Below the pieces are notes generated by a model. The model made no database searches. It was not told where the DNA came from and was given only the letters and a program-made list of their open reading frames with translations. From NCBI RefSeq assembly GCF_024502345.1, contig NZ_JALDNN010000001.1: a stretch of 64,000 nucleotides of DNA. One strand, 5' to 3'. Origin of the DNA: Escherichia coli (GTDB lineage Bacteria > Pseudomonadota > Gammaproteobacteria > Enterobacterales > Enterobacteriaceae). Position numbers and translations under genes: made by a program. Positions 1-55,927 of this stretch are shown here, in pieces; the stretch's first letter is position 1; each line of letters begins with the position of its first letter.

Positions 1-281
1 GGCGTGTCTGCGGTTTTTCAACTATTCAGATACATCACTCCCATCACATTCATTCCTCCGCATCATAGGCATATAGGCTATATCACCTTGATATTTTTCT
101 TCTTCAGATAAAAACTGTTATCTATGTATACTTTTAAACCCAATCCGTGTAGAGTCTCTGCATAAGATAGTTTGCAGTTGCCACTTCAGCTTGCGCCATA
201 AACCGCCTGATTTTTGCCGCCACCTGGGTGATGCTGCCAACTTACTGATTTAGTGTATGATGGTGTTTTTGAGGTGCTCCA

Positions 282-557
282 GTGGCTTCTGTTTCTATCA
301 GCTGTCCCTCCTGTTCAGCTACTGACGGGGTGGTGCGTAACGGCAAAAGCACCGCCGGACATCAGCGCTATCTCTGCTCTCACTGCCGTAAAACATGGCA
401 ACTGCAGTTCACTTACACCGCTTCTCAACCCGGTACGCACCAGAAAATCATTGATATGGCCATGAATGGCGTTGGATGCCGGGCAACCGCCCGCATTATG
501 GGCGTTGGCCTCAACACGATTTTCCGCCATTTAAAAAACTCAGGCCGCAGTCGGTAA
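282..557 (+). CDS. insA: IS1 InsA
   Basis: 91-aa [27 protein letters not shown]..., recognised as IS1 InsA. Confidence 0.95.
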
Positions 558-979
558 CCTCGCGCATACAGCCGGGCAGTGACGTCATCGTCTGCGCGGA
601 AATGGACGAACAGTGGGGATACGTCGGGGCTAAATCGCGCCAGCGCTGGCTGTTTTACGCGTATGACAGGCTCCGGAAGACGGTTGTTGCGCACGTATTC
701 GGTGAACGCACTATGGCGACGCTGGGGCGTCTTATGAGCCTGCTGTCACCCTTTGACGTGGTGATATGGATGACGGATGGCTGGCCGCTGTATGAATCCC
801 GCCTGAAGGGAAAGCTGCACGTAATCAGCAAGCGATATACGCAGCGAATTGAGCGGCATAACCTGAATCTGAGGCAGCACCTGGCACGGCTGGGACGGAA
901 GTCGCTGTCGTTCTCAAAATCGGTGGAGCTGCATGACAAAGTCATCGGGCATTATCTGAACATAAAACACTATCAATAA
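476..979 (+). CDS. insB: IS1 InsB (expressed as InsAB' by frameshift)
   Basis: 167-aa ORF overlapping insA in the -1 frame, typical IS1 arrangement. Confidence 0.9.
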
Positions 980-994
980 GTTGGAGTCATTACC

Positions 995-1092
995 TAAGTC
1001 AGGTATAAATATAAGTGACATTGCCCAAGAATTCAAAACCTCGCGGCAAACCATTTTAAGAGCTAAAGCAAAAAATCAGACACCTGATATAT
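995..1092 (+). pseudogene. C-terminal HTH fragment of a recombinase/DNA-binding protein truncated by IS1
   Basis: Open frame running straight out of the IS1 right end: ...[31 protein letters not shown]. Resembles the C-terminal HTH of serine recombinases; no start codon of its own. Confidence 0.3.
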
Positions 1093-1191
1093 AAAAATAA
1101 TCTCGGTGTGAGATTCCTTACGTTTTCCAAGCCCCCCTTCCTAGCCTTAAATGGAAAGATACTTCTAATTATAGAATTTATATATCTTACC

Positions 1192-1359
1192 CTACGGTAG
1201 GGCTGGCCATTCAATATCCGGTGCAGTTGATGTATCAACACGGTTCAGCAACACCCGATACTTTTTCCAGGCTTCCAGCAACAAGGTTTCTTCCTCCGTT
1301 GCGATCTCCAGATCCACAGCATCCTGAAGCGGCGCTATATGCTCACTGGCTACCTGCAT
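1192..1359 (-). CDS. Hypothetical small acidic protein (55 aa), divergent from the CI-like gene
   Basis: [58 protein letters not shown]; below the 60-aa cutoff of the ORF track; sits in the cro position but shows no obvious HTH. Confidence 0.3.
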
Positions 1360-1439
1360 CAGGCTGTTTTTTGTTTCTTCCGCCTACCTGTAATACTGAT
1401 TGCGAGTTGAATGGTTTGATTTGTCATTATCAATTCCTA

Positions 1440-1537
1440 TTGGTATTGCAATGAATGAATAATAGCAATGCGTATTAATCCAAGCAATAGCAAAACGTGT
1501 TTTGACCATCAATACGCAAGCGTATAAATTAAAACTT
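1440..1537. promoter_or_regulatory. Operator/promoter region upstream of the CI-like gene
   Basis: AATAGCAAT at 1461-1469 and AATAGCAA at 1486-1493; palindromes ATTGCAAT (1445-1452) and ATACGC-AA-GCGTAT (1512-1525); TTGACC (1502-1507) followed by an AT-rich -10-like stretch ending ~9 nt before the ATG at 1538, suggesting a leaderless or near-leaderless transcript. Confidence 0.45.
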
Positions 1538-2230
1538 ATGAAAAAAGAAACTCTTGCTGATCGCTTAAACCTAGCGATGGAACAATCTGGAATGTCTCAA
1601 GGCGCTCTTGCAAAGGCGTCTGGCGTAGCTCAACCCACAATCTGGAGACTGACAAGCGGCAACGCTCGCGGCTCAACAAAAATTGTTGAAATAGCTAATG
1701 CATTGGGTGTTCGAACAGAATGGCTCTCATCAGGCATAGGCCCGATGAGAAATGACGGTCAACAATCAGGGAAGCCTGCTGTCAGCCATTCAAAATACTT
1801 CAAGATTGACGTTCTTGATATAGAAGTGAGTGCCGGGCCGGGAGTCATCAACCGTGAGTTTGTAGAAGTTCTACGCTCGGTTGAGTACTCGTTTGACGAT
1901 GCTCGTCACATGTTCGATGGTAGGAAGGCAGAAAATATCCGCATCATTAACGTACGCGGTGACAGCATGTCAGGAACGATCGAACCAGGTGATCTGCTGT
2001 TCGTTGATATCACGGTTAAATCTTTCGACGGTGATGGTATCTATGCGTTTCTGTATGACGACACCGCCCATGTAAAGCGCCTGCAAATGATGAAGGATAA
2101 GCTACTGGTTATCTCTGATAACAAGAGCTACTCACCGTGGGACCCGATCGAGAAAGACGAGATGAACCGGGTATTCATATTCGGTAAGGTTATTGGGAGC
2201 ATGCCGCAGACGTACAGAAAACACGGATAA
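1538..2230 (+). CDS. CI/LexA-type phage repressor (N-terminal XRE HTH, C-terminal S24 autopeptidase)
   Basis: 230 aa from MKKETLADRLNLAMEQSGMSQGALAKASGVAQPTIWRL (HTH) to ...NVRGDSMSGTIEPGDLLFVDI...AHVKRL (S24 Ser in GDSM and Lys in VKRL). The ORF track offers an upstream ATG at 1502, but that lies inside the promoter-like region. Confidence 0.85.
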   Translation: MKKETLADRLNLAMEQSGMSQGALAKASGVAQPTIWRLTSGNARGSTKIVEIANALGVRTEWLSSGIGPMRNDGQQSGKPAVSHSKYFKIDVLDIEVSAGPGVINREFVEVLRSVEYSFDDARHMFDGRKAENIRIINVRGDSMSGTIEPGDLLFVDITVKSFDGDGIYAFLYDDTAHVKRLQMMKDKLLVISDNKSYSPWDPIEKDEMNRVFIFGKVIGSMPQTYRKHG

Positions 2231-2312
2231 TCAGCCGCGTGTTGATGAGGCTTTTGGGTAATACGCTGAAGAAAATACCTTATAAAAAATAACATTACGG
2301 GAAAGGCAAAAA

Positions 2313-2576
2313 ATGAGTAATAAAACACTTGTTAAAAAATCAAATAACTGTGTCGATGCATACGCCGACGCGTTTGGCTACTCTTCGTTTGGTGACGGCT
2401 CTCAGCGCCTAGGTTCAATTTCTTTTTTTCATAATGTAACTGAATGGCCTGTTGATGAAAGTGACGATGTTGAGAACATAAAGTACAACATTGCAACCAT
2501 TAGAATGCCCGAAGAATTGATGCTTAAATTGGCTGACTTCATTCGCGACCAGCATGACAAAGCTAAAACAAACTAA
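2313..2576 (+). CDS. Hypothetical protein (87 aa), prophage cargo gene
   Basis: ORF with GGAAAGG ribosome-binding site 7 nt upstream; AT-rich compared with neighbours; no family recognised. Confidence 0.5.
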   Translation: MSNKTLVKKSNNCVDAYADAFGYSSFGDGSQRLGSISFFHNVTEWPVDESDDVENIKYNIATIRMPEELMLKLADFIRDQHDKAKTN

Positions 2577-2588
2577 TCGTAATTAATT

Positions 2589-3032
2589 ATGAAACACGAT
2601 TATTACGAAGCTCCAAACCTAAATGATAAAATTGCAAAGGCGGCAAAATCATTTTGTTTGCACTCCAGTGCGTCTTCCCAGCTAGCAGGTATATCTGGAA
2701 AAAGATGGGACATGCTACAATCAAGTGGTAGCAGTGGGTCTGGGAGTGATAACATGCCTGAAAAAGTTGCAAAACTGGAGTCCGATGTTGCTCATATCAA
2801 ACGAGACGTTGATGAACTTAAAACAGACGTTAAAGCTATCGACAAAAATATGATAACTATTCTTGCACGTCTGGACTCTATAAAAGAATCCTTAACAAAC
2901 AAGCCATCAAGTGATGCTGTCGATAGAAAGATTTCAGACGCAAAGCTTGCGGTATTGCTTGGTGTTCCAGCAATCATCGCTGCAGGAACAGGACTTTATA
3001 AGCTATCAATGTACTTTTTCTTTAGTGCTTAA
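2589..3032 (+). CDS. XhlA-like coiled-coil protein with C-terminal transmembrane helix
   Basis: C-terminal 92 aa MPEKVAKLESDVAHIKRDVDELKTDVKAIDKNMITILARLDSIKESL...AKLAVLLGVPAIIAAGTGLYKL: heptad-like coiled coil plus one hydrophobic helix, resembling phage hemolysin XhlA. The ATG at 2589 has no ribosome-binding site; the ATG at 2754 has GGGAG 7 nt upstream and may be the true start. Confidence 0.5.
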   Translation: MKHDYYEAPNLNDKIAKAAKSFCLHSSASSQLAGISGKRWDMLQSSGSSGSGSDNMPEKVAKLESDVAHIKRDVDELKTDVKAIDKNMITILARLDSIKESLTNKPSSDAVDRKISDAKLAVLLGVPAIIAAGTGLYKLSMYFFFSA

Positions 3033-3106
3033 GAAAATGCTCGCACCCTTGCATTAGGTAAAGCGATTTTTCATTCCCCATTACCCTCGCTCTTAACCAA
3101 TCATCT

Positions 3107-3136
3107 AAACCCGGCCACCGTGCCGGGTTTTCTTTT
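3107..3136 (+). terminator. Rho-independent terminator after the CI/cargo operon
   Basis: aaaCCCGGC-caccgt-GCCGGGttttctttt: GC stem, 6-nt loop and T-run, just downstream of the 3032 stop. Confidence 0.6.
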
Positions 3137-3261
3137 GCCCTCCCCTCATCACACACCGTTCAAAAAACCACCACGACCTCACTTCAGTTATCGCTATGCG
3201 ATGCAAGTCACAAAATTAATTCTTTTTGCTATCAAACATTTAATATCAAAACACATCAACT

Positions 3262-3308
3262 AATAGCAATAAGTATTGATATCACCAATAGCAATAGCTA
3301 TTATCACC
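3262..3308 (+). promoter_or_regulatory. Second operator set with pL-like promoter
   Basis: AATAGCAAT at 3262-3270; palindrome AATAGC-AATA-GCTATT at 3287-3302; TATCACC direct repeats at 3280-3286 and 3302-3308; TTGATA (3276-3281), 17-nt spacer, TATTAT (3299-3304) on the + strand. Confidence 0.4.
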
Positions 3309-3497
3309 ATATCGCAACAACACAACGATACGGCAACCACCTGATTCACCGTTGCGATGACCGCTTAGATCCGCAGCTTGAATTTCAGCAGGCTTCGGGG
3401 AGTGCGAGGGATGAAACGGACGCGTGAACGTCGGTGTGACCAGCTGAAATCAACTCAACATTTCATACCTTAGTCGCTTCAACGAGGCGGCTTAGTT

Positions 3498-4377: not shown

Positions 4378-4656
4378 ATGCATTTTTCTGGCAGCGGGCT
4401 TCATATTCTGTGTGCTTATGCTTTCCGTTTCCATGACCTCAGACACACCTGGGCAAGCTGGCTGATTCAGTCAGGCGTCCCATTATCAGTGCTTCAGGAA
4501 ATGGGCGGATGGGAGTCCATAGAAATGGTTCGTAGGTATGCTCACCTTGCGCCTAATCATTTGACAGAGCATGCGAGGAAAATAGACGACATTTTTGGTG
4601 ATAATGTCCCAAATATGTCCCACTCTGGAATTATGGAGGATATAAAGAAGGCGTAA
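4378..4656 (+). pseudogene. Tyrosine integrase, C-terminal fragment only
   Basis: ...[46 protein letters not shown]... carries the integrase catalytic box (HxLRHT, trailing Y) but only ~80 aa remain; ends 16 bp from the 3' end of argU, the expected attachment site. Confidence 0.8.
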
Positions 4657-4671
4657 CTGATTGAATTGTAA

Positions 4672-4748
4672 TGGCGCGCCCTGCAGGATTCGAACCTGCG
4701 GCCCACGACTTAGAAGGTCGTTGCTCTATCCAACTGAGCTAAGGGCGC
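4672..4748 (-). tRNA. argU: tRNA-Arg (anticodon UCU)
   Basis: Reverse complement reads GCGCCCTTAGCTCAGTTGGATAGAGCAACGACCTTCTAAGTCGTGGGCCGCAGGTTCGAATCCTGCAGGGCGCGCCA (77 nt, anticodon TCT, CCA end). Confidence 0.95.
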
Positions 4749-5623: not shown

Positions 5624-5720
5624 TATTAATTATAATTGATCATAAATATCGCATCCGCTTTCGCCGGTGATGCTGCCAACTTACTGATTTAGTGTATGAT
5701 GGTGTTTTTGAGGTGCTCCA

Positions 5721-5996
5721 GTGGCTTCTGTTTCTATCAGCTGTCCCTCCTGTTCAGCTACTGACGGGGTGGTGCGTAACGGCAAAAGCACCGCCGGACA
5801 TCAGCGCTATCTCTGCTCTCACTGCCGTAAAACATGGCAACTGCAGTTCACTTACACCGCTTCTCAACCCGGTACGCACCAGAAAATCATTGATATGGCC
5901 ATGAATGGCGTTGGATGCCGGGCAACCGCCCGCATTATGGGCGTTGGCCTCAACACGATTTTCCGCCATTTAAAAAACTCAGGCCGCAGTCGGTAA
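5721..5996 (+). CDS. insA: IS1 InsA
   Basis: Protein identical to copy 1 InsA. Confidence 0.95.
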
Positions 5997-6418
5997 CCTC
6001 GCGCATACAGCCGGGCAGTGACGTCATCGTCTGCGCGGAAATGGACGAACAGTGGGGATACGTCGGGGCTAAATCGCGCCAGCGCTGGCTGTTTTACGCG
6101 TATGACAGGCTCCGGAAGACGGTTGTTGCGCACGTATTCGGTGAACGCACTATGGCGACGCTGGGGCGTCTTATGAGCCTGCTGTCACCCTTTGACGTGG
6201 TGATATGGATGACGGATGGCTGGCCGCTGTATGAATCCCGCCTGAAGGGAAAGCTGCACGTAATCAGCAAGCGATATACGCAGCGAATTGAGCGGCATAA
6301 CCTGAATCTGAGGCAGCACCTGGCACGGCTGGGACGGAAGTCGCTGTCGTTCTCAAAATCGGTGGAGCTGCATGACAAAGTCATCGGGCATTATCTGAAC
6401 ATAAAACACTATCAATAA
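5915..6418 (+). CDS. insB: IS1 InsB
   Basis: Protein identical to copy 1 InsB. Confidence 0.9.
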
Positions 6419-6600
6419 GTTGGAGTCATTACCCGAAAAATGAAGCTTTCAATCTCAGCGACCTCAGCGACGGTGCGCCTCACCTTCGCAAGAGGTCGCT
6501 TCACGCGATAAATCTGAAACGAAACCTGACAGCGTGCCCCGCTTCTGACAAAATAGGCGCATCCCCTTCGACCTACGTAACAGATGGAATCCTCTCTCTG

Positions 6601-23677: not shown

Positions 23678-24882
23678 TTACTGCTGATGTTTAAGGATAA
23701 ATTGACCTTTCGGCGCAACAGGGAAGCCCTGTTCGATGTCGTAAATCACATCACCACGTAAGATGGTTTTCGTGATACGCGCGCCAATGGTACGGCCAAC
23801 ATACGGGCTGACTTTGTGGCGATATTCCAGATCGTCATTGGTAAGAACATAGCTGCTATTCGGCTGAATGAAGACGAAGTCGGCATCTTTTCCTGGGGCG
23901 ATACGGCCTTTTTGCTGCAGACCGAAAATATCTGCTGCGTTAGTCGCCATTAATTTGCCGAACATTGGCAGAGACATTCCGCGTTTCTGTACCGCTTCAT
24001 CGAACATCACGTCCATACAGTTTTGCAGACCGGCAATACCGCCCCATGCTTCCATGATGTTGCCGGCTTTCATTTCCGGAGGGCATGGTGAGTGGTCGGA
24101 AACCAGGCAGTCGATTTCACCGTTAAACAGTTTTTCCCACATGCCTTTCTGGTTTTCCAGATCGCGGATCGGCGGTGAACACTTCGCCAGAGTACCAATT
24201 TCTTCGAACTGATCGGTATCCAGTACAAAGTAATGCGGGCAGGATTCACAAGTAACGTCCTGACCTTCCTGACGTGCACGAGTCACTTCCTCAACACCTT
24301 CCGGGCTGCTGATATGGCAAATGTGCAGACGGCAACCGGCAACTTTCGCCAGATACAGCACGCGGCGAATCGCTTCCACTTCGGTAAATACCGGACGCGA
24401 AGCCACATAGTCATGGGCAGTTACGCGACCTTCACGTTTCGCTTCTTCGCCCAGTGCGTCACAGATCAGCGCGTTTTCGCAGTGCACCAGCACCGGCTGC
24501 CCCAGTTCGCCCAGCTTCTGCGCACCTTTGAAGAACTGCCAGTCGTTTACATCACGGAAGTCGTTGTCGATACCGCGATCGCCACAGGTCGCAACGAAGC
24601 ATTTGAAGCCGACAACGCCCACTTCATCCAGCTCATGCAGACGGTCGATGTTGTAAGACACCAGGCCACCGAGTTGTGCCGCATCGATAGTTAGCTTGCC
24701 TTTAGCGGCATCGAACTTCAGTTCAATTGAAGCGCGGTCAACCGTTGCAGGCAGCTGGTTGAGCGGCATTTCGATCATGGTGGTGATACCACCTTTTGCC
24801 GCTGCGCGAGTACCGGTTTCATAACCTTCCCAGTGGCTACGACCCGGTTCAGAAATATGGGTGTGCGCATCAACCATGCCCG
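23678..24882 (-). pseudogene. allB: Allantoinase allB, 3' portion (interrupted by IS903)
   Basis: Encodes allantoinase residues from ...[21 protein letters not shown]... to the C-terminus; the 5' part of the gene lies on the other side of the IS. Confidence 0.85.
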
Positions 24883-25939
24883 GGCTTTGTTGAATAAATC
24901 AGATTTCGGGTAAGTCTCCCCCGTAGCGGGTTGTGTTTTCAGGCAATACGCACGCTTTCAGGCATACCTGCTTTCGTCATTTTGTTCAGCGCTCGTACCA
25001 GGGCCATAGCCTCTGCAACCTGACCATCGTAGTCACGCAGTGTCAGTGAACCCCCGAACAGCTGTTTTACCCGGTACATCGCCGTTTCCGCTATCGAGCG
25101 ACGGTTGTAATCTGTTGTCCATTTCCACCGCGCATTACTCCCGGTCATTCGCTGATTAGCCACTGCACGGTTACGGTCTGCATATTCACCGGGCCAGTAA
25201 CCCGCACCTTTTCGGGGAGGGATAAGCGCGCTGATTTTCTTACGCCGCAGTTCATCGTGACATAGCCGGGTATCGTAAGCGCCATCGGCGGCGGCTGACC
25301 TGATTTTCCGGTGGGTTTGCCGGATTAACCCGGGGAAGGCCTCTGAGTCCGTAACGTTGTTCAGCGACAGGTCAGCGCAGATGATTTCATGTGTTTTACT
25401 GTCAACGGCGAGATGCAGCTTACGCCAGATACGGCGGCGTTCCTGGCCATGCTTTTTGACTTTCCACTCGCCTTCACCGAAGACCTTCAGCCCGGTGGAA
25501 TCAATTACCAGGTGTGCGATTTCACCCCGGGTGGGCGTTTTGAAACTGACATTAACCGACTTTGCCCGCCTGCTGACACAGCTGTAATCCGGGCAGCGTA
25601 GCGGAACGTTCATCAGAGAAAAAATGGAATCAATAAAGCCCTGCGCAGCGCGCAGGGTCAGCCTGAATACGCGTTTAATGACCAGCACAGTCGTGATGGC
25701 AAGGTCAGAATAGCGCTGAGGTCTGCCTCGTGAAGAAGGTGTTGCTGACTCATACCAGGCCTGAATAGCTTCATCATCCAGCCAGAAAGTTATGGAGCCA
25801 CGGTTGATGAGGGCTTTATTGTAGGTGGGCCAGTTGGTGATTTTGAACTTTTGCTTTGCCACGGAACGGTCTGCGTTGTCGGGAAGATACGTGATCTGAT
25901 CCTTCAACTCAGCAAAAGTTCGATTTATTCAACAAAGCC
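24883..25939 (-). mobile_element. IS903-type insertion sequence (IS5 family), 1057 bp
   Basis: Terminal inverted repeats GGCTTTGTTGAATAAATC at 24883-24900 and 25922-25939; direct 9-bp duplication CCATGCCCG at 24874-24882 and 25940-25948; end sequence matches the IS903 ends known from Tn903. Confidence 0.9.
24939..25907 (-). CDS. IS903 transposase
   Basis: 322-aa ORF with DDE transposase features; the true start may be downstream of the first ATG. Confidence 0.85.
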   Translation of the reverse strand: MKDQITYLPDNADRSVAKQKFKITNWPTYNKALINRGSITFWLDDEAIQAWYESATPSSRGRPQRYSDLAITTVLVIKRVFRLTLRAAQGFIDSIFSLMNVPLRCPDYSCVSRRAKSVNVSFKTPTRGEIAHLVIDSTGLKVFGEGEWKVKKHGQERRRIWRKLHLAVDSKTHEIICADLSLNNVTDSEAFPGLIRQTHRKIRSAAADGAYDTRLCHDELRRKKISALIPPRKGAGYWPGEYADRNRAVANQRMTGSNARWKWTTDYNRRSIAETAMYRVKQLFGGSLTLRDYDGQVAEAMALVRALNKMTKAGMPESVRIA

Positions 25940-26105
25940 CCATGCCCGGCGAAACCACCAGACCAGACGCATCCATAACTTCTTTTGCATCGCCCAGATC
26001 CTGACCGATAGCAGCAATTTTCCCGCCTTTAACGGCGATATCTACAACGCGAGCTTCGTTTTCTAAAATAACGGTGCCGTTTTTAATGATTAAATCAAAA
26101 GATAT
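25940..26105 (-). pseudogene. allB: Allantoinase allB, 5' portion; start codon position reads ATA
   Basis: Encodes (I)[53 protein letters not shown]; the codon where Met1 is expected is ATA (plus-strand tat, 26103-26105). Confidence 0.8.
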
Positions 26106-26164
26106 AACAAACTCCTTGTAAAATACAGATTGGTTTTTAACTCAATGTTCAATATCGGGATTAA

Positions 26165-27619
26165 TTAACCTATGGTTTTTTGCTCTCCTGTTTTTTCTGC
26201 TGTTGTACGTTTCTTTAATAAGGCGTAGGCCGCAAAGGCGACGATGACGCCGACAAACCATGAAACACGCGATAACGGTTCCATTAAGGGAATAAACTTA
26301 CCGCCAAGAGATAAAATAACGGCGACCAGAGTTACTGAAAACGCGGTGAGGTTAAAACCGTTATCGTAATATTTATAATCGCCAGGTGCGGTGTACAGTT
26401 CATCAAGATTAATTTGCCCACGCATCACCACAAAATAATGCGCCATCATGACACCAATTACCGGACCAAGCATTCCGCCGATAATATCGAGGAACAGATA
26501 AATACTGTCCTGATTTTCCATTAATTTCCACGGGCAGATCAGCAGGCTGATAATACTGGCAATCAGTACGCCGTTTTTATAAGTCAGTTTCGTCGGTGCA
26601 ATAGCGGCAATCTGATAACCGGCAGGAATAATATTACCGGTGGCGTTAGTGGAGATAGTCGTCATCAGAATAACCAGTACCGCAAAGAACGAGGTGAACA
26701 AGCTGTCCCAACGCTGAACAATATCCAGCACGTTCCAGGTATCAGCGCCGTAATGAATACTGGCTCCGGCAATAATACATACCCCCGCGACCGCAAACAG
26801 AATATAGGCCACAACTAAACCCAGCGTTTGCCCCAGCGCTTGCTCACGAAACGAGTGGGCGTTTTGCGTAAAGTCGGATGCGCTCACCGCCGGTGCCGCC
26901 CAGACCGCAACTACCGCGTTTATCACCACCAGGAACAGGAAGCCACTGTTTTCTGCTTTCTGAATACCGCTCGGAATGTAGTCAAAGATTGGACCGAGCC
27001 CGACCAGCGAAATCGCCCAAATCGCCATACCGCCGAAAACGATATAGATGCACGGGTTAAGAATGGCAGTGAATTTATTTAAAACTTTGCCACCGCCAAA
27101 ACCTATACCAACGTTGACCAGCCAGAAGAGTAAGAAAGTAATTAAGCCCGGTAGAGAAAGCCCTAACAGCGTGAAATCACCACCGAGAGTTAAAAATCCC
27201 GGCCAGATTTTGCCAATCAGAATCAAGCAGGCCAGTGACCCCGCGTAACATTGCAGGCCAAACCACATAATGGCAGCAATACCGCCTCTTAATAATCCGG
27301 GAAACAGTGCGCCACGTACGCCGTAAGAAGCACGCAGGATCATGGCAAACGGTACGCCGTATTTACTGCCCGCAGCGCCGTTTAATACCATTACCGCGGC
27401 AATGAAAAAGGCGCTGAGGATAATTGCCAGCATAATACTAAAGGTAGACAAGCCGAGAATAAAAAAGCCGCCGACCATCACATAATTGGGAACGTTATGA
27501 ACCGAACCCATCCATAAGGTAAAATAGTTAAATGTTTTCCAGGTCCGCTGGCTTTGCGTTTTCGGCAATAGATCTTCGCTATAGCCGCGTTGCTGGAATA
27601 GTTTTCTCTGATGTTCCAT
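26165..27619 (-). CDS. ybbW: NCS1-family allantoin permease
   Basis: 484 aa, MEHQRKLFQQRGYSEDLLPKTQSQRTWKTFNYFTLWMG... Confidence 0.9.
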   Translation of the reverse strand: MEHQRKLFQQRGYSEDLLPKTQSQRTWKTFNYFTLWMGSVHNVPNYVMVGGFFILGLSTFSIMLAIILSAFFIAAVMVLNGAAGSKYGVPFAMILRASYGVRGALFPGLLRGGIAAIMWFGLQCYAGSLACLILIGKIWPGFLTLGGDFTLLGLSLPGLITFLLFWLVNVGIGFGGGKVLNKFTAILNPCIYIVFGGMAIWAISLVGLGPIFDYIPSGIQKAENSGFLFLVVINAVVAVWAAPAVSASDFTQNAHSFREQALGQTLGLVVAYILFAVAGVCIIAGASIHYGADTWNVLDIVQRWDSLFTSFFAVLVILMTTISTNATGNIIPAGYQIAAIAPTKLTYKNGVLIASIISLLICPWKLMENQDSIYLFLDIIGGMLGPVIGVMMAHYFVVMRGQINLDELYTAPGDYKYYDNGFNLTAFSVTLVAVILSLGGKFIPLMEPLSRVSWFVGVIVAFAAYALLKKRTTAEKTGEQKTIG

Positions 27620-32801: not shown

Positions 32802-33030
32802 CTTTTTGTCCTTGTAACATAATTCCGTTCAACCACCGCCGACCGGTCAGCTTGGTTTCAATAACAAGCAATCTAAAACCTTAAGAGAACAACATCAATA
32901 CAAAAGTTGGAATATTTTTCCAAAACTAGATTTAGTCCACAAATTGAACAGGGTTATCATGTAAAAATACTGATAAATCAGAGGATAAGAAAATCACGCA
33001 ACTTGCGGATTTAAAAGGGGATACCTGAAG

Positions 33031-33957
33031 ATGTTCGATCCAGAAACCTTGCGGACTTTCATTGCGGTTGCTGAAACAGGAAGTTTTTCAAAAGCGGCAG
33101 AACGATTATGTAAAACCACGGCGACGATCAGTTATCGCATTAAACTTCTGGAAGAGAATACCGGAGTAGCGCTGTTTTTCCGCACGACTCGCAGCGTGAC
33201 GTTGACAGCGGCTGGCGAGCATCTACTTTCCCAGGCCAGAGACTGGCTGAGCTGGCTGGAAAGTATGCCAAGCGAGCTGCAACAGGTGAATGATGGCGTG
33301 GAACGCCAGGTGAATATTGTCATCAACAACCTGCTCTACAACCCCCAGGCCGTCGCCCAGTTGCTGGCGTGGCTGAATGAACGTTACCCCTTTACCCAGT
33401 TTCATATCTCCCGACAAATCTATATGGGCGTCTGGGATTCGCTATTATACGAAGGTTTTTCACTGGCTATCGGCGTCACGGGAACCGAGGCGCTGGCAAA
33501 TACCTTTAGTCTTGATCCCTTAGGATCGGTGCAATGGCGCTTTGTCATGGCGGCGGATCATCCGCTGGCGAACGTTGAAGAGCCGCTAACAGAAGCGCAG
33601 TTGCGGCGCTTTCCGGCGGTCAATATTGAAGACAGCGCCCGCACCTTAACCAAACGCGTCGCCTGGCGATTGCCAGGGCAAAAAGAGATTATTGTTCCTG
33701 ATATGGAAACGAAAATCGCCGCCCATCTTGCGGGCGTTGGCATTGGTTTTTTGCCAAAATCGCTTTGCCAGTCAATGATCGATAATCAACAACTGGTTAG
33801 CCGGGTAATCCCAACGATGCGCCCTCCTTCGCCATTGAGTCTGGCATGGCGCAAATTTGGCAGCGGCAAAGCGGTAGAAGATATTGTGACCTTGTTTACC
33901 CAGCGCAGGCCGGAAATCAGCGGATTTTTAGAAATTTTCGGCAACCCACGCAGTTAA
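33031..33957 (+). CDS. allS: LysR-family activator of allDCE
   Basis: 308 aa, [26 protein letters not shown]... Confidence 0.9.
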
Positions 33958-36594: not shown

Positions 36595-39500
36595 TTACTT
36601 GAGATAGCCAGCATCTTGTAAAGCCTTTATCGTTTTTTTATGCTCTGGATTAATATAATCACTACATCTATCTGAGCAATCTGTTGTTGATGGACATGTC
36701 AACCCATGGTCATTTACAGCCAAGTCTTTTTTATTATCTTCAATCATTTCAGAATGGGATAGCTTTACTTTTCTGCCGTACATACCGAACAGATTTAACC
36801 CGTAATCTCTAATCTCTTTTTCATAACCCAGCCCTTTCGCCGATCGGCTAACACCAGCGTCATTTAATTTAGACACTCGACAAAATGCCATACAATGAAA
36901 AAATTGATCAGTCCCACCTAAATTTAATCTCTTCATATCTTCATAAGTATCAGATAATATATCCCATGCTCTTTGATGGTTTAGTTGATCTTTTCTTCTT
37001 ATTAGCGCTACATCTGCGGGACTTAACCCTAATGGATCAATACCATTCACCGGATTCAGCGGATACGCATACAGACTCCATCCCCCCTCCAGCCCTATCG
37101 GGTCCTGAGTGATATACCGCCCCTGCAACGGATCGTAGTACCGGTTCCGGTTGTAGTACAGCCCCGACTCCTTATCATACTGCTGCCCCGGCAGCCGGTA
37201 CGGCTGGTGCAGGTGATGCGGGTTCTCCTCATTAAGCTGGTTGCCCCATTCATCATATTCCGCGCTCCACGCCGTATTGCCGTCTTCACTGATAAGCGCC
37301 AGCGGCAGGCCCCGGTGGTCACAGTGATAAAGATGTATTTTTCGCTCAGGCAAATAAACCGGCTCTATCTGTGCCGCCAGCCGCTCCACCGTCAGCCCGC
37401 ACTGCGCAAGCCACTGGCGGCTTTCACTGCTCACGCAGTTTGCCCGGATTTCCCCCTCCAGCCTGTCCAGCAGCCCCACCAGTTCAGCCGGGAACACCAC
37501 ACCGTGACCGTCTTCGCTCCCTTCCTGCTGTAACTTCTCCGCCAGGCTGCGGCACTGCGCTTTCTCCCGTTCACCGTTGTCTGTTTCGATGCGGATGAGC
37601 GGCGCGAAGCTCCCCGGCAGGTAGACCGTCTGGATTCGCGTGGTATCTGTCTGTACCGTCGTCAGGCGGTCTCCGTCCCAGCCGTACCATGTCATCTCCG
37701 GTTTACGCGACAGCGACATCCACCCCGTCAGGTCACGCTCCCGCCGCCATACCCGTTTCGCCATTCGCCGTCCCAGCGGGTCGTAGAGGTAGCGGCTCTC
37801 GACCAGTGGCTCGCCATGCTGTATCCGCGTGTGGAACACCAGGCGGTGCTGGCTGTCGTAGTGGTAGTGGTGGGTCCGCTCGTCGTCCGTCCGTATCACA
37901 CCCGTCGGGATGCGGTCCGTCTTCTCCGTCAGTCTGCCGTATTCATCATAGTGGTAAACATAGTGCGCATCCTCTGCGATGCGGTTATCCGGCCACGCCG
38001 TGAGCGTGCTGTCCGGGTGTAGCTCCGGGTCCGGCAGGCGGTTTCCCGCCGGGTCGGTGGCATACGGGATGCGGATGTCCAGGTCCGGTGCGAGGGTGCG
38101 CACGCTCTCCAGCCTGCCCGTGGCACTGTAGCCGTATTCCCGCGTCTGTCGCGGACCGCTGATGCGCACCAGGTCGCCGTTGTCATTCCACCCGTAGTCA
38201 CGGTCATACACCAGGCTGTTCAGGTGCTGGCTCTGTAACTGGCCTGCGGGGGTGTATGTGCTGGTCAGTTCATATGCGGCATTACTGCCTGCCATGCTGC
38301 CAAAGCTGCGCACCGTCTCCCGGTGCAGGCGGTCGCGCGTGTACTCCAGCAGCGGCGTGTCGCCGAGCTTCATGCCCGCCAGATAACCGCTGCCATACGT
38401 CAGCCACTCCACCGGCGGCAGGCTGTCCGGCGTGACGCGGTTTGCCAGCCCCTGTTCGTTGTAGGCGTGCGTTGTCTCATGCTGCCACAGCAGTTCCCCC
38501 GTCTCCGGGTTCTCCACCGTCTGGCGTTCGCCGGTCAGGCGGCCTTTATCGTCATAGCCGTAGTGGACCGACACGCGGTGGCCTTCACTGGTATGGCTGA
38601 GGGTGGTTAACCACCCGTGCTCATCATACTGCCACTGCTCTGCCGGGTCGCCGTTCACCGTCCGGTGCGTGATGCGGTCCGACGCATCGTAGTGCCAGAG
38701 GGTGATAAGCCCCTCATCCTCACTCTGCGTGAGTTTTCCGGTCAGGTCATAATGATAACGTTGCGTCCGCCCGTCAAAGCCGCCCTGCTGTACCAGCCGG
38801 TCCAGCGCATCGTAGCTGAAGTCGCTGTGACTGCCGTTCTCGTTAGTCAGACTGATGACACGTCCGGCAGCATCGTACTCCATACTGCGCGTCAGCCCGC
38901 CCTGCGTGGTGCTGACCGCCTTTCCCCACGCATCGTACTGTGTCTCGCTCCGGTTGCCGTCCGGGGTGATAACGGCAGTCAGGTCGCCTGCGGCGTTGTA
39001 CTCATACTGCGTTTCACGGCCCTGTGCGTCTTTCACCGAGGTTAACCGGCCACGGTTGTCATAGTGGCGGTAAAGGCTGATACCTTCCTCGCGGTGAACC
39101 GCCGTCATCTGGCCGAAGCGGTCGTATTCATAGCGGGTCTGGTAGCCCGAGCAGTCAGTGAACGCCAGCAACTGCCCGTAGCGGCTCCACGTCATCTGCC
39201 GGGTGCTGCCCGTCGCATCCGTTGTCGTCGCCGGTAACTCACTGTGCGCGTCATCGTAGCGGTAGCGTACTGTCTCCCCGCTGCGCGATGTCTCCGATAC
39301 CAGCCTGCCCGGTTCATCATATTCCCGGCGGCTCTCCAGCCCGTCCGGGTACACCACCGCCGTCAGCTGGTTCCCGTCGTTATAGTAAAATTTCGTCTCC
39401 CGCCCGTCCGGTGTGGTGATGTCCGTGATATCGCCGGACACCACATTCAGACCGTACTCTGTCCGCCGTCCCGCCGCGTCCGTCTGCGCCGTGAGCCTTC

Positions 39501-40806
39501 CTGCCGCGTCATACCCGCTGCGCGTGACGCTGCCGTCCGCCAGTTCTTTTTTCACCACCCGTTTCAGCCCGGCCCCGCCTTCTGTATGCAGCACCTCACG
39601 CCGGTTCAGGCTGTCGGTGACGGTGATGCGGTCCTGCTCATAAAGATAGCGGTAGCTTAACCCTGCCGGGTTCAGTTGCTCCACCACCCGCCCCGTATCG
39701 TCGTAGCGGTAGCGCATCTCCGGCCTGCCTGCATAACGGTGCCCCACCATCCGGCCCCGGTATTTATCATCGTAAGTAAAGTGGCGCATCTGCGTACCGC
39801 TGCGGTCATACACCGCCGCCAGCTCACCGCGTGGCGTCCAGTCGTAGCACACCAGTGGCGCGGCAGGTAAATTTTCCGGGTATTCCGGGTCGTGCATCAG
39901 CCACACCGCCGAAAGACGGATACCGCTGTCAGCGCCGTATTCCGTACCGGGCAGTGTGTCGGGGAAGGAAGGAGCTGAGAGAGGGCGGGGACTGTCAGGG
40001 GAAGATAACGAAGCGGTGTGCGGTTTACGGGCCTCTTCCGCCCGCTGTGCCTGTGTGGTCAGTACCAGACGGAACTCCCGCCCGGCACCGTCCGTCACGC
40101 CGGTGATTTCCCCGGCCAGGTCACCGGCGGCCTCACGCCGGTACGCCAGCGTCCGCCCGAAGCGGTCCGCCATCCCGGTAAGCACCCGGTACGGCGGCAG
40201 CGGCGCTGGCAGTAAGTCCTCAGCACCCGGCACCCGCTCAGACCACCCCAGTATCCACCACGGCCCCTGTGCGCTGTTGGTCGCCAGGTAAAGATGCGGG
40301 CTTAACCGGATATCCGGTGGCAGCGACGCCCACAGCCGTGCCAGCGTGTGGCCGTCCGGCTGCGCTGCCTTACCGCCACGCACCAGCCACATTGACTCAC
40401 TGCGGCTGTACACCGCCTCCCCCGGCAGCAGCGGCTCAAAGTGAATGCTCCGCCCGCCGTTGTCGTTGAGTATCAGTGCATCATCGCGTATCTGTAAGCG
40501 GATATCAGAAGGCGCTTTCCAGCCGGGGCCGAAAACGCCCACCGGTGCAGGCGTCTTCGTCCGGTAGCTGCTGTAGGTGCGGGAGAGAATGAACGGCAGC
40601 GGGCCGGGCAGCGCAAGGTCCGTCTCGCCGGGCTGTACTTTTGCACCGAGCAGCGGGTTCACCGGGTTGCCCGAGGTCATCCCGCCCGGACACACCGAGC
40701 ACGCCACGCCAGTTGGCGCGCCAATTCTTACACCTGCCGAACCCTGGACAATGGGACCGCCATACTGAGTCATATCTCCCTGACGCGCCGCTGGTTTTCC
40801 GCTCAT
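36595..40806 (-). CDS. rhsD: Rhs-family polymorphic toxin (YD-repeat protein)
   Basis: 1403 aa; N-terminus [25 protein letters not shown]; many YD repeats; DPxGL motif ([12 protein letters not shown]) followed by a 141-aa AT-rich C-terminal tip (about 36598-37020). Locus equated to rhsD by position. Confidence 0.9.
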
Positions 40807-55624: not shown

Positions 55625-55927
55625 TTAGTAGTTGTGTGGGTCTAAAAACAATTCTTCGGCCTTGCCATTAACCCATTTAAATATCAGTCGGTACTGTTTA
55701 TTCACTCTAATGGAGGAATATTCCTGTAATTTCCCGGACAACTCTTCGTATCGGTTCCCCGGAGGGGAGCGTAAATCCCGATGAGAAGTGGCAGCATTAA
55801 TGATGTCCAACTTTCGTGATAACGAGGTATGGATTTCAGCAGGGATCTTTCGATGTGGCGTTGAATGGACAAAAAAATCAGCCAGCCAGGCATCACGAAA
55901 ACTCCTTATATTATTCTTTTGAGCCAT
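55625..55927 (-). CDS. HigB-like RelE/ParE-superfamily toxin candidate
   Basis: 100-aa ORF 35 bp upstream of and co-directional with ybaQ (toxin-first order as in higBA); basic, ...YRLIFKWVNGKAEELFLDPHNY. Confidence 0.55.
   Translation of the reverse strand: MAQKNNIRSFRDAWLADFFVHSTPHRKIPAEIHTSLSRKLDIINAATSHRDLRSPPGNRYEELSGKLQEYSSIRVNKQYRLIFKWVNGKAEELFLDPHNY

Follow-up and report, generated by a model that had tools for sequence, protein, structure and literature searches.

In one strain of Escherichia coli, the allantoinase gene allB was very probably lost in two steps: a start-codon transition from ATG to ATA that is specific to a small lineage, and then an IS903B insertion, private to this strain, that knocked the gene out. 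The order of the two lesions is deduced from comparison of genome sequences, and the loss of expression from the first lesion is extrapolated from reporter measurements. The window, that is, the whole stretch of DNA that we analysed, comprises 64,000 nucleotides of contig NZ_JALDNN010000001.1 (assembly GCF_024502345.1). At about 97.3-99.7% identity, it aligns collinearly with the K-12 folD-purEK-all-rhsD-copA-gsk region. Within it, allB lies in the allantoin regulon, between allW and ybbY, and the order and orientation of its neighbours are those of K-12 (gcl-hyi-glxR-allW-allB-ybbY-glxK). The features of the locus are as follows.

26165..27619, minus strand: allW (ybbW), the allantoin transporter gene, intact and immediately upstream of allB
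26142..26144, minus strand: in-frame TGA, 13 codons upstream of the ATA, read from the sequence
26112..26117, minus strand: Shine-Dalgarno sequence AAGGAG, 6 nt (TTTGTT) before the ATA, the same as in references
26103..26105, minus strand: ATA at the allB initiation-codon position, from the sequence reading and comparison with references
25974..25976, minus strand: ATG, codon 44 of allB, the first downstream in-frame canonical start
25940..26105, minus strand: allB 5' fragment, codons 1-55 plus 1 nt, continuing as GGG CTT TGT TGA into the end of the IS
25940..25948: target-site duplication, copy 1, 9 bp, CGGGCATGG on the minus strand (allB sense)
24883..25939, minus strand: IS903B (IS5 family), 1057 bp, with terminal inverted repeats; transposase ORF at 24939..25907
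24874..24882: target-site duplication, copy 2, 9 bp, CGGGCATGG in the allB sense
23678..24882, minus strand: allB 3' fragment, from the duplicated target site (codons 53-56) to codon 453 plus the stop codon

The stop codon of allW (26165..26167) is followed by a 59-nt spacer, ending in ...TACAAGGAGTTTGTT, that leads to the allB start. On the minus strand, the order is AAGGAG (26117..26112), TTTGTT, ATA (26105..26103) and TCT-TTT-GAT-TTA-ATC (26102..26088), and the codons from the start position read ATA TCT TTT GAT TTA ATC ATT AAA AAC GGC ACC. The initial annotation of this DNA had given the minus-strand reading ATA-TCT-TTT-GAT-TTA-ATC at these coordinates, and the sequence bears it out. Relative to the ATG of reference E. 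coli, the window carries a G-to-A change at 26103; reference allB genes have ATG where the window has ATA, and the reference strain 88-3493 is the same as the window across the start region except for this codon. The N-terminus of allantoinase given in the initial annotation is also correct: residue 1 of the solved E. coli allantoinase (PDB 8HFD) aligns to residue 1 of the reconstructed protein.

It had also been claimed that no canonical in-frame start precedes the ATA. We read all the codons back to the in-frame TGA (26144..26142), namely, from the TGA onwards, gtt aaa aac caa tct gta ttt tac aag gag ttt gtt, and found no ATG, GTG or TTG among them, in agreement with the claim. The out-of-frame TTGs near the Shine-Dalgarno sequence were ruled out as rescue starts, as they open mini-ORFs of 3-7 codons that end at TAA. 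Two further candidates were rejected: the in-frame ATC and ATT (codons 6 and 7) lie 21-24 nt from the Shine-Dalgarno sequence, and Met44 has no good Shine-Dalgarno sequence and its use would remove the first 43 residues. None of the alternative start candidates is predicted to rescue allB.

The second lesion is the insertion. That allB is split by an IS903-type element, and hence carries two lesions, was proposed in the initial annotation and proved correct: the element is a 1057-bp IS903B with a 9-bp target-site duplication. The spacing of the direct repeats is 1066, that is, 1057 + 9. The element is identical (100%, full length) to annotated IS903B copies in many E. coli genomes, and its transposase scored 357 bits against NF033579, the equivalog model for IS5-family transposases. 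Its size, inverted repeats, 9-bp duplication and transposase are thus those of an IS903B of the IS5 family. The insertion splits allB after codon 55 plus 1 nt, and the 5' fragment reaches a TGA three codons inside the IS. Within the 3' fragment, the ORF at 23678..24877 begins at Met55. Removal of the IS and one repeat copy gave an uninterrupted 453-codon allB frame, whose product scored 1003.6 bits against NF005960 (AllB equivalog; cut-off 688) with coverage of 1-453/453 and aligned end to end, over residues 1-453, with E. coli AllB as represented by PDB 8HFD and 3E74. This product differs from K-12-type AllB by V240I only. Since the base concerned (A at +717) was also found in three ATG-bearing contigs (L037, L038 and L041), it is a standing polymorphism. 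Compared with E. coli AllB, the gene in the window has an ATA start and is split at codon 55/56 by IS903B and the duplication; it has neither the canonical start nor the uninterrupted frame of a functional gene. The insertion is an unambiguous knockout of allB, and no full-length enzyme can be encoded in the window's strain. As a case of insertional inactivation by IS903B it is typical and shows nothing unusual.

To find sister genomes, we used contigs encoding exactly the AllW protein of the window, and compared their DNA with the window after excision of the IS. GCA_050022275.1 (L005) showed 5 differences in 13,455 bp, and GCA_001484085.1 (L003; from a healthy preschooler, the commensal strain ccpm3961/AN61; PMC7133007) showed 16 differences over the same length. 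A Logan contig from ERR14375843 (L008) showed 0 differences in 4,428 bp. These three sequences, which over 4.4-13.5 kb share 99.88-100% identity with the window after excision of the IS, all have ATA at the start position and an uninterrupted allB without IS903B (3/3). Two others (L004 and L006) encode an AllW protein identical to the window's from more divergent DNA, and their start is ATG. Two incomplete contigs (L009 and L010), one of which begins in adapter, were uninformative on the start codon. Across the 2,965 bp of allW-allB in 38 sequences, the ATA was the sole window base unshared outside its own lineage, with the exception of one sequence, NZ_CP027442.1 (L001), discussed below. Most of the differences between L003 and the window (14/16) fall within ~770 bp of allS (window 32836-33606), which resembles a short recombination tract in otherwise near-identical DNA.

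Because the ATA occurs in near-identical relatives that are free of the IS, the start-codon change appears to predate the insertion: start codon first, IS903B second. The initial annotation had taken the ATA as a mutation accumulated after the IS903 disruption. A mutation due to such secondary decay should be missing from IS-free relatives, and L003, L005 and L008 all have it. The corresponding scenario, in which IS903 disrupted allB first and the ATA is later neutral decay of a dead gene, is in our view very improbable. It draws on the presence of both lesions in one gene, and pseudogenes do accumulate secondary mutations. However, with three independent, near-identical assemblies or contigs that combine ATA with an uninterrupted allB, it would need parallel identical mutations or repeated precise excision. 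Moreover, no other decay is visible, since the IS-excised frame is intact with V240I, a base common to three ATG-bearing contigs, as its only difference, and the IS itself is 100% identical to other IS903B copies. By exact look-up, no contig on record encodes the 399-aa product of the 3' fragment, and the junction of allB with the IS was not found in complete E. coli genomes, where the junction query matched unrelated IS903B ends only. From these two results, the insertion in allB looks private to the window's strain.

The same three relatives bear on whether the strain really has ATG and the A at 26103 stems from faulty sequencing or assembly. About 99% of E. coli genomes differ from the window here by one base, as they would from an error, and the initial annotation had kept this escape open. 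It is refuted by independent assemblies carrying ATA: GCA_001484085.1, GCA_050022275.1 and the Logan contig of ERR14375843 have the same base, all with the window's haplotype. In addition, 26103 does not lie in a homopolymer or other error-prone context. We consider an error hardly credible.

The initial annotation had also implied a wider accumulation of mutations, which the surrounding genes do not support. Among 53 K-12 genes compared with the window, every full-length ungapped alignment has an unchanged start and no internal stops, except for the readout of allA; this gene was extracted one base out of register, which makes its start/stop readout invalid, and it aligns over its full length with 3 mismatches. 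In the allantoin regulon, the genes that passed are allS, allR, gcl, hyi, glxR, allW, ybbY, glxK, allE, allC, allD, fdrA, ylbE, ylbF and ybcF. With these genes intact and the IS-excised allB frame intact as well, allB appears to be an isolated casualty in a locus that is not in general decay.

To estimate how rare the ATA is, we used 61-mers centred on the allB start codon, in an ATG and an ATA version. Of the 5323 complete RefSeq genomes of E. coli with the locus, 5250 matched the ATG 61-mer at 100% identity. The window's own ATA 61-mer had a full-length match in one complete genome, that of the Shiga toxin-producing E. coli (STEC) strain 2013C-3252 (NZ_CP027442.1); every other genome among the matches listed differs from it by that one base. 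Metagenome contigs were scanned with a pattern of the start region in which the codon was given as NNN. All 54 contigs matching the flanks had ATG (54/54), and the scan of these contigs yielded no further ATA carriers. The carriers are the window, GCA_001484085.1, GCA_050022275.1, the Logan contig of ERR14375843 and NZ_CP027442.1. From these counts, ATG appears to be essentially fixed in E. coli, with ATA as a rare derived state. Among GTDB species representatives, the start-region pattern gave a single match, on a scaffold of 226 bp assigned to Corynebacterium striatum ATCC 6940 (NZ_GG667593.1, scaffold 75). This scaffold is almost certainly E. coli contamination and is uninformative. A search of the literature found nothing relevant on E. 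coli pseudogenes of allB or allantoinase.

The ATA of strain 2013C-3252 stands on a different background. Of the 2,965 sites of its allW-allB haplotype, 48 differ from the window, and many O26/O111-type STEC genomes lie within about two mismatches of that haplotype. The O26/O111-type genomes that we checked (E2865, E2863 and E2855) are one base off the ATA 61-mer. Given the 48 differing sites and the ATG-bearing near relatives of 2013C-3252, the simplest reading would be that the ATA arose at least twice, independently in this strain; for the same reasons, we rejected sharing by descent or recombination as the simplest reading. Conversion over a very short tract, of less than about 530 bp, is formally possible as the source, given that all strains are nearly invariant between -180 and +347. 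We do not read the recurrence as evidence of selection, as the change is a simple transition and thousands of genomes were sampled. In the genome of 2013C-3252, ybbY, downstream of allB (NZ_CP027442.1, 4447-5747), is annotated as frameshifted, which could reflect operon decay or an assembly indel.

How far the ATA by itself inactivates allB can be gauged from initiation at AUA in E. coli reporters. In one set-up, AUA gave about 1-2% of the output of AUG (Hecht et al., bioRxiv 10.1101/063800), and values elsewhere in E. coli reporter contexts were 0.02-3% of AUG (bioRxiv 10.1101/063800). Some initiation at the AUA of allB is plausible, because the consensus Shine-Dalgarno sequence is kept at ideal spacing. 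The ATA allele is probably a severe hypomorph that would be functionally null for growth on allantoin, yet not formally dead. The "second inactivating lesion" of the initial annotation is therefore right in part: there is a second lesion, in that the ATG has been replaced, but "inactivating" is too strong for a weak near-cognate codon behind a consensus Shine-Dalgarno sequence. In the IS-free carriers the allB frame is perfectly intact, without further lesions, which fits a very recent mutation as well as a still-useful, weakly translated gene.

The latter raises the possibility that the ATA is a tolerated or selected low-expression start, providing useful low-level AllB in the IS-free lineage. 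AUA supports measurable initiation, the Shine-Dalgarno sequence and its spacing have been retained, and the allele has been kept while its lineage diversified through scattered SNPs and what looks like a recombination tract. STEC 2013C-3252, whose O26/O111-type haplotype otherwise comes with ATG, acquired the same change independently, and the annotations of both NZ_CP027442.1 and GCA_001484085.1 call the gene intact. Nevertheless, we regard this reading as unlikely. With 1 carrier among about 5,300 complete genomes and none among 54 metagenome contigs, the allele is very rare, which argues for purifying selection on ATG and against any lasting success of ATA. Two independent changes at one transition site are expected by chance among thousands of genomes. 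The gene was later destroyed outright in the window's strain, and the frameshifted ybbY of 2013C-3252 hints at operon decay there. Slightly more doubtful still is a recurrent, tolerated down-tuning, with AllB made at about 1% from AUA both in the commensal lineage and, independently, in STEC. If it were true, allB would be a natural chromosomal E. coli gene that initiates at AUA and is silently treated as normal by annotation pipelines.

Returning to the reading that we favour, in which the start codon was weakened before the gene was interrupted, the events would be these. A G-to-A transition, in the ancestor from which a small lineage of commensal E. coli descends, would have converted the ATG of allB to ATA and left the Shine-Dalgarno sequence and the entire 453-codon frame unaltered. 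Judged from the reporter measurements, synthesis of AllB would have been cut to roughly 1% of normal, making the allele a severe hypomorph or effective null. Later, and in the window's strain only, IS903B would have transposed into codon 55/56 of the already crippled gene, with a 9-bp duplication, to give the definitive knockout.

The first of these lesions resembles known start-codon weakening alleles: it is likewise a third-base transition of ATG to a near-cognate codon with ~1% of the activity of AUG, and there is no other canonical start. It is not a strict start-codon loss, and gene callers handle it inconsistently. RefSeq annotates the allele of NZ_CP027442.1 as an intact allB of 453 aa (WP_000006887.1), the annotation of GCA_001484085.1 likewise has a 453-aa AllB starting from the ATA, and in GCA_050022275.1 the call begins at Met44, for an N-terminally truncated protein of 410 aa. 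Translation table 11 permits ATA as a start. Natural AUU starts are used for regulation in infC and pcnB of E. coli and are conserved across relatives. The ATA of allB shares with these starts a class II near-cognate AUN codon behind a good Shine-Dalgarno sequence. Unlike them, however, it is a rare derived allele, found in one small lineage and one unrelated strain, at a position where ATG is near-universal, and it has no evident regulatory role; it does not behave as a conserved non-AUG start.

Outside the allantoin genes, the window departs from the K-12-type locus at several places. Two copies of IS1 (768 bp each, 100% identical, in direct orientation and with InsA/InsB ORFs) lie at 227-994 and 5666-6433. 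Nothing in the window matches the K-12 sfmA-sfmF fimbrial operon or envY; the second IS1 occupies the position of the sfm operon in K-12, which suggests an IS1-associated deletion. Between the two IS1 copies, the segment 1000-4750 is a phage-like remnant that adjoins tRNA-Arg(TCT) at 4672-4748 and did not align to the K-12-type locus. By eye, the ORF at 1502-2230 resembles a phage repressor and that at 4378-4656 the C-terminal fragment of an integrase. The segment 35200-40806 contains a rhsD-like ORF (36595-40806, 1403 aa) that is 92.8% identical to K-12 rhsD over the first 3755 nt and differs at its C-terminal tip. The window lacks a match to K-12 ybbC, and together with the different tip this would fit the usual replacement of an Rhs toxin tip and its immunity gene. 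Finally, a 100-aa ORF at 55625-55927, in a segment that did not align to the K-12-type locus, adjoins ybaQ, which encodes a HigA-type antitoxin; it is possibly a cognate toxin gene that K-12 lacks.

Both lesions of allB are of an ordinary kind, a start-codon transition followed by an IS insertion, and their biological significance is small: one non-essential nitrogen-scavenging gene was weakened and then destroyed in one commensal lineage, with the rest of the regulon intact. The inconsistent annotation of ATA starts means that surveys of gene presence and pseudogenes miss or misreport such lesions. Furthermore, a single genome does not reveal which lesion of a pseudogene arose first, and here the sister genomes overturn the intuitive sequence of IS first and decay second.
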